Below, one piece after another: positions 27,762 through 30,232 of a stretch of DNA of 64,000 nt (within the stretch, counting starts at the first letter, position 1; the number at the start of each line of letters is the position of its first letter). A model generated the notes under the pieces. That model was not told where the DNA came from, made no database searches, and worked only from the letters and a program-made list of their open reading frames with translations. Source of the stretch: a virus (Duplodnaviria > Heunggongvirae > Uroviricota > Caudoviricetes). The stretch spans positions 27,299-91,298 of IMG/VR virus record IMGVR_UViG_2913167280_000003. One strand, written 5' to 3'. The translations under genes and the position numbers were made by a program.

Positions 27762-30022
27762 GAGAGCTGTGCTATGGATCTGTTTGCAGTGGAATTGAAG
27801 CCGCGAGCATTGCCTGGGAACCGTTGGGTATGCGTCCGGCGTGGTTTGCTGAGATCGAGCCTTTTCCATCTGCCGTTCTTGCGCACCGCTGGCCCCATGT
27901 CGCCAACCTTGGCGACATGACAAAACTCGCCCAAAAAGTCCAGGCAGGAGAAATTGAAGCCCCTGATATGCTCGTCGGGGGTACGCCTTGTCAGGCATTC
28001 AGTATCGCGGGCTTACGTGGTGGGCTTGATGATGAGCGCGGCGCGCTAACTTTGAAGTATGTGGAGCTTGCAAATGCAATTGACGACAAACGGGCTGAGT
28101 CCTTCCTCAAACCAGCAGTTATCGTCTGGGAAAATGTCCCAGGAGTCCTGTCATCAGCAGATAACGCGTTCGGATGTTTCCTTGCCGGATTGGCTGGAGA
28201 AGATGCGCCATTCGAACCTGGTGATCGACCTGAATCACGAAAAAGTAACACGTTCTGGCGGTGGGATGTCAAAACCGGTTGCCATGCTCCAAAGTGGCCG
28301 CAGTGTGGTTGTATTTATGGACCGCAGCGAAAAGTGGCCTGGAGAATCCTTGATGCCCAATACTTCGGAGTGGCACAACGACGCCGACGCGTGTTTGTTG
28401 TCGCAAGTGCTCGAACAGACCTCGATCCCGCAACGGTACTTTTTGAGTTCGAAGGCGTGCGCCGGAATATTGCGCCGAGCCGAAAAAAGAAGGAAATCGC
28501 TTCCGCCATTATTGCAAATGGCGCTGCAATCAGTGGCGAAAGCCTAAATCCATGCCTACACGCTGACATGCCCCCCGGCATGAAATCGACGAAAGCCGTA
28601 AACGCTTTCAGGATGGCGGCATTTGGGGAATATATTGACGATGAAACCGCATCGACAGTAAAGGCAAGAGACTTTAAAGATGCCACTGACCTTGCCGTTT
28701 TTAGCAGCACAGGAGCAGGTTTTTGGTCAGAAGGGCATGGTACATTGCGGGCACGTGAGCAAGAAAGCCATGAGCATCTTGTTACATTGGCTTTTCCTGA
28801 GCGTATGAGCGGTACACAACATGCTGCAACTAAGAATACTTCACCATCTCTAATGGCTAAAAATCCAACAGCCCTTTGCTATGAAGTAAGAAACGCAGAA
28901 GTAGCTGTCCGCCGTCTTACTCCTGTCGAATGTGAAAGGCTGCAAGGTTTTCCTGATGGGCATACGTTGATCTCGACGGAAAAGCGTAAAAAAGTTAATT
29001 CAGATGAACTGGCATATCTTCGCAATCACTATCCAGATTTAAGCGAAGAAGAGGCCGCGATGCTTGCAGCTGACGGACCGCGTTACAAAGCGATCGGAAA
29101 TAGTATGGCAATACCAGTAATGCGCTGGATTGGCGATCGGATTACTAAGGCTGCATGTCGGCAAAAAGAAGGGAGTGAAACAAAAGAGCGAAAGGTTAAA
29201 CCAGCGGCAGAATTCGAACGGCCCATATTCAAATGGGCTGGTGGAAAATTTGGTGTTCTGGAACAGATCTTTCGCTATTTGCCAGAAGGGAAGCGCCTGA
29301 TTGAACCTTTCGTTGGTGGCGGAGCTGTCTTCATGAATGCCGGATACCAGGAAAATCTGCTAAATGATGTGAATGCTGACCTGATTAACTTTTACAAGAC
29401 TCTGCAACGCGAGGCGCATTCACTTATCACTCTGGCACATCGTTTCTTCCTGGACTACAACACCCAGGAGGGATTCCTGGCAGTACGGAATGCGTTTAAC
29501 AAACAAGTCTATGATGATTTACATCGCGCAGCGGCGTTTTTGTTCCTGAACCGACATTGTTTTAATGGATTGACGCGCTACAACCAGGCCGGTGAGTTCA
29601 ATGTCGGGTATGGGAAGTATAAGTCTACGCATTTTCCATTACAGGAGATGGAAGCCTTCCTCGGTGCGGAAGGGCGGTCTGAGTTTGTATGCGGTGATTT
29701 TGCAGCGGTGATTGAAGCTGCCGGAGAAGGAGATGTCATCTTTTGCGATCCGCCGTATGAACCGCTCCCCAATACAGAGGGGTTCACGAACTATTCCGGT
29801 CATGACTTTAAGTTTGAAGAGCAAAAACGCCTGGTGTCTCTGTTGACGGATGCTCATCGCCGAGGTGCAAAGGTTCTCATTACTAACAGTGGCGCGCCAA
29901 ACATCAGAGAACTTTATCAGGACAGTGGCTTCAGAGTGGAACCTCTTTTTGCCAGACGTTCTGTGTCTTGTAAGGGAGACACTCGTGGTGTTGCTCATGA
30001 CGTTATAGCCATATTGCTCTAA
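27758..30022 (+). CDS. dmt: Dmt bifunctional DNA methyltransferase (N-terminal C5-cytosine MTase-like, C-terminal Dam-like N6-adenine MTase; 754 aa)
   Basis: PCQ and ENV motifs ([19 protein letters not shown]) N-terminally, DPPY motif (FCDPPYEP) C-terminally; 754 aa as P1 Dmt. Confidence 0.85.
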
Positions 30023-30029
30023 TAAATTT
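30013..30029 (+). promoter_or_regulatory. C1 operator (perfect ATTGCTCTAATAAATTT) overlapping the dmt stop codon
   Basis: 17/17 consensus match seen directly. Confidence 0.8.
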
Positions 30030-30207
30030 ATTAGTGTAATATCGCCTCAATGAATCGTGATTTATAGAGCGATTTAGCTGTTAGCCGCGACAGGCGCGGC
30101 GGTAAGCATGGCTGGGCCTAGTCTTCCCAGACAAACCACCGAGTTGCCAGGTTGACCATGCGCCTAAGTGGCAACACCGAAGTGCGTAACGAGCTTCCAT
30201 CCAGTTT

Positions 30208-30232
30208 GCCCATCTTCGGGTGGGCGTTTTTT
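30208..30232 (+). terminator. intrinsic terminator (GCCCATC-TTCG-GGTGGGC followed by GTTTTTT)
   Basis: 7-bp stem, tetraloop, T-run; no ORF between operator at 30013 and this terminator. Confidence 0.7.

Follow-up and report, generated by a model that had tools for sequence, protein, structure and literature searches.

A putative C1-repressed non-coding leader with a conserved structured RNA in a P1-like phage-plasmid

Results

A P1-type control region and leader

We analyzed a 64,000-nucleotide (nt) stretch of a virus of the Caudoviricetes (IMG/VR virus record IMGVR_UViG_2913167280_000003, positions 27,299 to 91,298), hereafter the window, with a focus on the interval 30013 to 30232, which runs from a C1 operator at the end of the DNA methyltransferase gene dmt to an intrinsic terminator. 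Judged by its sequence, the window is a P1-like phage-plasmid, and the interval is not new but corresponds to the annotated, repressor-controlled start of the P1 ban operon. Our preferred reading, to which we assign a probability of roughly 0.6, is that the interval comprises the ban-operon control region of the P1 family and the first ~185 nt of its transcript, and that a four-way-junction RNA encoded there is the selected product or cis-element. An earlier note on this DNA had proposed a C1-repressed small RNA or leader. The leader part is supported, since the homologous region of P1 carries the annotations C1-controlled operator Obanab and dicF-like region, and the small-RNA part is an extension by analogy to the biogenesis of DicF. 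Three points had escaped that note, namely that the promoter is the known ban promoter, that the operator is bivalent, and that what is conserved is a structured RNA and not the seed of a small RNA (sRNA).

Between 29500 and 30724 the window shares 94 to 96% identity with P1, P7, SJ46, RCS47, and their relatives, and the operator-to-terminator unit is ~98% identical to the P1 segment harboring Op72ab/Obanab, the promoters P1ban and P2ban, and the "dicF-like region." Comparison with the orthologous P1 interval (AF234172, 68651–68892), which the earlier note had suggested, reveals a collinear, annotated unit. Over 30013–30232 the two sequences differ by three substitutions and a single indel, a 4-nt insertion that creates a tandem UCCA repeat at 30196–30203, directly 3′ of the closing stem of the junction RNA; P1 has a single U-CCA at this place, which resembles the 3′ end of a transfer RNA (tRNA). 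The P1 record lists a divalent C1 operator, Obanab (formerly Op72ab), that "controls expression of ban," the promoters P1ban and P2ban with their hexamers within the operators, and a non-coding, 102-base pair (bp) "dicF-like region" at P1 68791–68892, equivalent to ~30137–30242 of the window (AF234172); in the P7 record, the same operator controls tRNAs and ban.

Overlapping C1 operators at the ban promoters

The dmt open reading frame (ORF; 27758–30022, + strand; identified from the ORF list and the P1 dmt annotation) ends with a TAA stop codon (30020–30022) that falls within operator Oban-a (formerly Op72a; 30013–30029, + strand). This site is homologous to P1 68667–68683 and matches the 17-mer ATTGCTCTAATAAATTT with 0 mismatches, just as the earlier note had described, and is the sole perfect copy in the window. 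A second operator, Oban-b (formerly Op72b; ATTACACTAATAAATTT, 30024–30040, − strand, two mismatches), overlaps the first in inverted orientation, which makes the site bivalent and collinear with P1 68667–68694. Allowing up to three mismatches to the 17-bp asymmetric consensus, we find 14 sites in the window versus 0.25 expected from shuffled sequences, and thus the C1-operator family in the window is real. The 13 further operator-like sites, for example at 10300, 11963, 26491, 37767, 60627, and 60710, appear consistent with the dispersed operator set known from P1-like phages.

Two promoters accompany these operators. P2ban is predicted by homology to the P1 annotation at 29997–30028 (+ strand; −35 ATGACG at 29997–30002, −10 TAAATT at 30023–30028). 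P1ban (30014–30042, + strand; −35 TTGCTC at 30014–30019, −10 TAATAT at 30037–30042) is placed by P1 homology and sequence; both of its hexamers lie inside C1 operators, and its start site would fall at ~30048–30051. Since the two overlapping operators cover the −35 and −10 elements of P1ban/P2ban, repressor bound there should prevent transcription from starting in the lysogen; C1 binding and repression at Obanab are here taken from annotation.

A non-coding interval that ends at an intrinsic terminator

The absence of a plausible + strand ORF between operator and terminator, also claimed previously, is borne out. The sole + strand ORFs, 30152–30253 (33 residues, TTG start) and 30168–30272 (34 residues, GTG start), both cross the terminator, and the 4-nt indel shifts the frames of both relative to P1; on the − strand, an ORF at 30081–30521 (146 residues) is split in P1 into pieces of 42 and 82 residues. 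We therefore reject protein coding in 30030–30232 on either strand, the ORFs being short, terminator-crossing, and broken in frame between the window and P1. A conserved short ORF, which the earlier note had named, if supported by ribosome profiling, as one finding that would overturn its proposal, is not found by sequence comparison with P1.

The terminator (30208–30232, + strand) reads GCCCAUC-UUCG-GGUGGGC followed by G and U6, and consists of a 7-bp GC-rich stem (G30208–C30214 with G30219–C30225), a UUCG loop, and a U6 run at 30227–30232, with a folding energy of −12.8 kcal/mol. It is thus a GC-rich hairpin with an immediate U-run, as is characteristic of Rho-independent terminators, and the strength ascribed to it in the earlier note is warranted. 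The stretch 29000–31500 shows no general excess of terminator-like sites (three found versus 2.6 expected), and the case for this one therefore rests on the quality and conservation of the hairpin, which is kept in all P1-like loci and also in phage D6 and locus L248, where the upstream sequence differs. Between the closing stem of the junction and the hairpin lies the spacer UCCA-UCCA-GUUU (30196–30207, + strand; a single UCCA in P1), which occupies the position of the DicF 5′ seed in Qin-type prophages. This stretch is only ~12 nt long and is variable, as seen from the UCCA duplication and a G/T variant in locus L135.

A conserved four-way-junction RNA

The four-way-junction RNA spans 30076–30195 (+ strand) and is defined by homology to sequences upstream of DicF, by covariation, and by a covariance model, R1, which yields one match in the window (102 bits) and no second copy. 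The closing stem, P0, pairs 30076–30083 with 30187–30190 and 30192–30195, and was placed by hand in the P1-type sequence; P1a pairs 30085–30089 with 30095–30099; P2 (30100–30103/30138–30141) encloses P3, a variable hairpin (30112–30116/30126–30130); and P4 pairs 30143–30152 with 30162–30164 and 30169–30175 around an invariant loop, UGACCAU (UUGACCAU in the DNA). The consensus stems are GUUGUGG/CCACAAC for P0 in lambdoid versions, CCGCG/CGCGG for P1a, and CGGU/ACCG for P2. A 5′ hairpin of the leader, AUCG..CGAU (30051–30075, + strand), is predicted from a single-sequence fold.

We collected homologs from genomes of Escherichia, Shigella, Citrobacter, Trabulsiella, Erwinia, and Izhakiella and from viral contigs, and reduced them to 35 distinct sequences (alignment A4). 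Across these, 95.6% of cells in the junction hold standard pairs, compared with 28 to 62% when the pairing partners are slid, and eight pairs are changed on both sides, a count that none of 500 shuffles reached. P2 and P3 also carry compensatory differences between P1 and P7. G-U pairs are frequent, which indicates that the + strand is the folded, functional strand. In the lambdoid sequences, the junction lies within 1 to 4 kcal/mol of the minimum free energy. The P3 loop always contains UCCU(U/C) although the P3 stem varies. Among 18 P1-like sequences, nucleotide diversity stays at 0.01 to 0.04 in the operator, in the 5′ half of the element, in P4, and in the terminator; only the P3 arm, whose changes covary, is highly diverse.

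These patterns bear on the simplest alternative, that the interval has no dedicated function: the hairpin would end dmt or late transcripts, the operator and promoter would serve downstream genes, and the remainder would be a recombination relic of a lambdoid dicF region. The region is indeed mosaic, as D6 carries the terminator and downstream RNAs behind a different gene, and the window has itself recombined further downstream. Set against this, compensatory changes keep the structure intact from P1 to P7 and from genus to genus, diversity in 30013–30112 and 30163–30262 (0.01–0.04) is no higher than in the upstream dmt coding sequence, and in all 15 contexts the element has a terminator as its partner. 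The compensatory changes and this unvarying partnership make a functionless relic unlikely in our view, with little probability left to it.

Several further pairings were evaluated and set aside. A loop–loop pairing between P1a and P4 (AUGG/CCAU) and a pseudoknot between the P3 loop and GAGGA are both present in Qin-type sequences and lost, as judged by eye, in P1-type and Erwinia-type sequences. A riboswitch-like antiterminator pairing of the invariant GGCGGUA with the 3′ strand of the terminator is possible in lambdoid versions but is not conserved, since the P1 terminator lacks the complementarity. Neither ARAGORN nor the Rfam tRNA model calls a tRNA over 30076–30195, and ARAGORN calls no transfer-messenger RNA (tmRNA) for the junction; looser tRNA likenesses include a closing stem of 7 to 8 bp, four arms, and UCCA 3′ of the stem.

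Points that weigh against the ban-leader and junction interpretation

Several observations count against our preferred reading. The hexamers of P1ban and P2ban are weak by consensus, and a generic sigma-70 scan calls no site at either promoter. We found no transcript data for P1 or for the element, and one P1vir RNA-seq preprint is silent on the region. Because ban is not downstream in the window, the designation as a leader of ban holds here by homology alone. The remaining points concern the fold. In addition to the hand placement of the P1-type closing stem, P1 itself has a U-U mismatch in this stem. For the window sequence, folding of the interval, which the earlier note had recommended, favors a rod-like alternative over the junction by ~10 kcal/mol (−45 versus −34 kcal/mol by nearest-neighbor energies). 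The central helix of the rod joins the invariant halves 30093–30112 and 30143–30165 through 17 pairs, which hold in 94.5% of cells over the 35 sequences; as these columns never vary, covariation neither supports nor excludes this helix. The rod is the predicted minimum for P1-type sequences, not for lambdoid ones. As an overall consensus it was rejected, with 70.8% of cells paired versus 95.6% for the junction and a much worse fit in 30 of the 35 sequences; the 17-pair central helix remains compatible with the data. A two-state RNA is thus possible on the basis of these models, and the demands of a dual fold could be one reason for the invariance of the sequence.

Distribution of the junction RNA and its relation to DicF

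Sites with ~78% identity to the segment 30085–30179 are present in 4428 of the 5426 complete E. coli genomes, at one to eight chromosomal positions each. The two matches that we examined (E2348/69 and O157:H7) lie in Qin-type dicB operons, between the ydfC-side genes and dicB, and in the Qin-type locus the mature DicF identified by Rfam lies 25 nt downstream of that block. The Rfam DicF model (RF00039) scores 72.5 bits on that locus and finds no match in window 30030–30250 with the same tool, even at E values up to 10. Thus, what P1 shares is the ~120-nt structured RNA just upstream of DicF and not DicF, and membership of the unit in the DicF family was rejected for want of a covariance-model match. 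Other Rfam matches over the unit are sub-threshold noise (STnc100, AgvB, and RyhB matches to the terminator hairpin), and no family covers the junction RNA. In our literature search, no paper linked P1 with a DicF-like RNA function.

The block that matches the window also occurs in 61 phage records, with one copy each. In lambdoid phages it is found in the early-left operon, ~300 nt after the annotated PL promoter in Ayreon and after cI in cdtI, F1055, and pPE4. Across 134 loci, which fall into 15 unrelated downstream sequence types, a hairpin and U-run follow the element by 50 to 130 nt in all cases; a script flagged 131 of these loci, and the other three have longer hairpins ending in CCTTTTT that were recognized by eye. 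The downstream types include canonical DicF, DicF variants, other hairpins, and the P1 hairpin. As 15 unrelated types all keep a terminator, the element-then-terminator arrangement is the conserved unit, in which the intervening sequence is free to change.

D6 provides a further case. In this phage (locus L261; MF356679 7825–8337), the terminator hairpin, a tag-template module described below, and tRNAs follow a pmgS-like gene, and neither operator nor junction element is present. It follows that the RNA cluster can be separated from the operator/junction module, each being a cassette of its own. In the D6 annotation, the tRNAs run opposite to the P1 orientation, perhaps through an annotation error.

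Two known mechanisms offer more specific alternatives. The first is a trans-acting sRNA of the DicF type, in which RNase E would release a 3′ fragment of ~30196–30232 that binds Hfq via the U-tail of its terminator and pairs with host mRNAs such as ftsZ upon induction. DicF arises by early intrinsic termination after ydfC and an RNase E cut at its 5′ end, with read-through transcripts cut by RNase III (PMC9438474, PMC5069750), and it binds Hfq and pairs with the ftsZ, xylR, and pykA mRNAs (PMC5069750). The documented biogenesis and targets, the match in position and architecture (3′ of the conserved upstream structure and ending at an intrinsic terminator), the strong terminator with U6, and the label "dicF-like" given by the P1 curators all speak for such an RNA. 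The lack of a DicF-model match despite its high score on the Qin-type locus argues against it, as does the hairpin in D6 and L248, which sits behind unrelated sequence. The ~12-nt spacer, where the seed would lie, is moreover the least constrained part of the unit. We regard a DicF-type sRNA as doubtful and, on sequence grounds, regard the junction rather than a DicF-like seed as the selected part, since only this short and variable stretch separates the junction from the hairpin.

The second alternative is a cis-acting processive antiterminator resembling the put RNAs of HK022, which suppress downstream terminators in cis via the zinc-binding domain of the RNA polymerase β′ subunit and are formed of two stem-loops (PMC9378689). 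Here, the nascent junction would bind RNA polymerase and carry it past the adjacent and later terminators, so that Pban transcripts reach ban. The element is always upstream of a same-strand terminator; it is promoter-proximal in P1 and lies ~300 nt after the annotated PL in lambdoid phages lacking N (Ayreon, cdtI), before any of the early-left genes; transcription of ban has to pass the terminator; and put RNAs act in just such a manner (PMC9378689). Yet neither putL nor putR of HK022 gives a hit with model R1, even when filtering is disabled, a junction of ~120 nt differs from two stem-loops of ~70 nt, each phage carries one copy, the element is mid-operon in Qin, and ordinary partial read-through suffices for DicF/dicB. 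Membership in the put class was rejected because R1 has no match at putL (L005 28357–28098, − strand) or elsewhere in 27600–30100 with filters off, the best hit being a trivial hairpin of 10.9 bits. A put-like role seems improbable to us.

Downstream RNA modules

The window follows P1 to 30724 and then departs from every phage record, and the new downstream arrangement is common to eight plasmids. No + strand ORF of the size of ban is found within 8 kb downstream, and convergent baseplate and tail genes begin near 32463; the RNA cluster and two small ORFs are therefore all that a C1-controlled transcript in the window can serve.

Immediately after the terminator, a tmRNA-like module (30233–30440) contains a tag frame at 30294–30326, GCA AAC GAT GAT CTG ATG ATG GTA GCG GCC TAA, which encodes ANDDLMMVAA*. 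The frame is preceded by UAAAU, as in tmRNA resume contexts, is followed by pseudoknot-like hairpins, and is identical in P1. Homologs of the module occur in lambdoid prophages, in a ~1-kb non-coding gap that separates Q from the holin gene, and have the tags ANDDLMLMAA, ANDDVVLMAA, and ANDEQFLAVA. All 14 distinct nucleotide variants retain 10 codons and TAA, the other two frames are closed, and the variants include purely synonymous ones (GAT/GAC, CTG/TTG, GCC/GCG/GCT, GAG/GAA). The module thus shares with tmRNA a tag-template frame with an ANDx...AA-type peptide and a stop codon. ARAGORN detects no tRNA-like domain (acceptor stem with G3-U70, T arm, CCA) in 30233–30440, the Rfam tmRNA models give 24 to 26 bits against gathering thresholds of 47 to 84, and BLAST similarity to genuine tmRNAs is confined to ~20 nt at the start of the tag. 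A literature search retrieved no report of the tag-template module or of phage tmRNA-like RNAs. One might speculate that the leader is the head of a polycistronic stable-RNA precursor in which a tRNA-like junction and the ANDDLMMVAA* module form a two-part, phage-specified counterpart of tmRNA, or a decoy for host defenses directed at tRNA or tmRNA, shared by P1-like plasmids and lambdoid prophages; we consider this highly improbable.

Overlapping the end of the tag module, a 17-bp helix with one conserved internal mismatch pairs 30416–30432 with 30477–30493 (fold −40 kcal/mol), and at its terminal pair P1 has C-G where the window has U-A, a compensatory exchange. From the predicted fold, it looks like an RNase III-type processing stalk between leader RNA modules. 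Farther downstream, a tRNA-Thr(UGU) gene (30699–31202) is interrupted after the anticodon arm by ~425 nt that harbor an HNH endonuclease ORF (30751–31170; phrog_2255, E = 6e-39), and the T arm, the 3′ strand of the acceptor stem, and CCA resume at ~31171–31202. ARAGORN calls this tRNA-Thr only after removal of the insert in silico, and Rfam detects no group I intron in the insert; P1 has intact tRNA-Asn and tRNA-Thr genes at the same place.

Finally, window 31250–31380 contains spacers of lambdoid RNA arrays, …GCACAACAG(G/A)TAAGAGCATT… and …TGCTCTTTCCGTTGTGG…, which are also found in the Q–holin and PL regions of prophages. In such arrays, a GUUGUGG...CCACAAC stem closes several unrelated interiors, some with T-arm-like hairpins (for spacers and closing stems, loci L147, L159, L244, L249, and L253). 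The sequence GUGCUCUUU also resembles the boxA sequence of rrn operons.

Discussion

The identity with P1, the statistics of the operators, the homologies, the covariation, and the terminator motif are shown by the sequences, and by homology we propose the following scheme for the leader, in which the start site, partial termination, processing, and any function of the junction are inferred. In the lysogen, C1 on both operators would block Pban. Upon derepression, RNA polymerase would start near 30049 and transcribe the non-coding leader, which, judged from its lambdoid homologs, would fold into the four-way junction at 30076–30195 with an acceptor-like closing stem followed by UCCA. Part of the transcripts would end at 30227–30232 to give an RNA of ~185 nt, probably trimmed like the homologous DicF precursor by an endonucleolytic cut just 3′ of the junction. 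The remainder would read through into the stable RNAs (the tmRNA-tag-like module and tRNA) and downstream ORFs, or, in P1, into tRNAs, tciABC, and ban. Read-through must occur in P1, as ban lies 2.6 kb past the terminator, no other + strand promoter is annotated between the two, and the record states that the operator controls ban. A discrete small RNA is probably made from the leader, by analogy to DicF, which is produced by early termination and RNase E trimming (PMC9438474, PMC5069750). Candidate roles for the junction include a processing or stability signal, a tRNA-like stable RNA, and a modulator of the adjacent terminator.

As first stated, the operator, promoter, and leader are a rediscovery of P1 ban-operon control, which alone changes little. 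What our analysis adds is that the label "dicF-like" covers a separate, strongly conserved, and widespread structured RNA that matches no Rfam family, that P1 lacks DicF proper, and that the same leader carries a tmRNA-like tag template. The junction RNA adjoins DicF in about four-fifths of complete E. coli genomes, is also present in phages of several enterobacterial genera, and always occurs with a terminator. Its function, once known, could explain the gating of P1 ban and of the toxic early-left genes of prophages (dicB and kil types), the maturation of RNAs of the DicF type, and the reason why tRNA-like and tmRNA-like RNAs are kept by phages in clusters that a repressor controls.

Among known systems, the P1 Obanab locus is orthologous, with identical operators, promoter hexamers, and terminator. 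It differs in what follows, as the P1 transcript runs on into tRNA-Asn, tRNA-Thr, tciABC, tRNA-Ile, and ban, whereas homology of the window to P1 stops at 30724 and gives way to the HNH-split tRNA-Thr and lambdoid-type RNA modules. The DicF precursor of Qin-type prophages (ydfC 3′ untranslated region-dicF) shares a homologous structured RNA of ~95 to 120 nt, a short spacer, and an intrinsic terminator; P1 and the window lack the seed regions and hairpin of mature DicF and have instead an unrelated UUCG hairpin after a spacer of ~12 nt, and their unit lies directly behind a C1-repressed promoter, whereas the Qin element is mid-operon. Like HK022 putL/putR, the window element is a promoter-proximal, structured nascent RNA placed before terminators in an early operon of a phage, without an N-type protein in the vicinity, but there is no match in sequence or structure, and the window element is a four-way junction present once per genome. 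Finally, StxS, the short PR′ transcript of Stx phages, likewise ends at an intrinsic terminator close to its promoter, so that the leader of a phage operon becomes a short RNA that may itself be functional (PMC7547250); promoter, regulator (Q antitermination), and sequence all differ, and the likeness is one of layout, for which we claim no homology.

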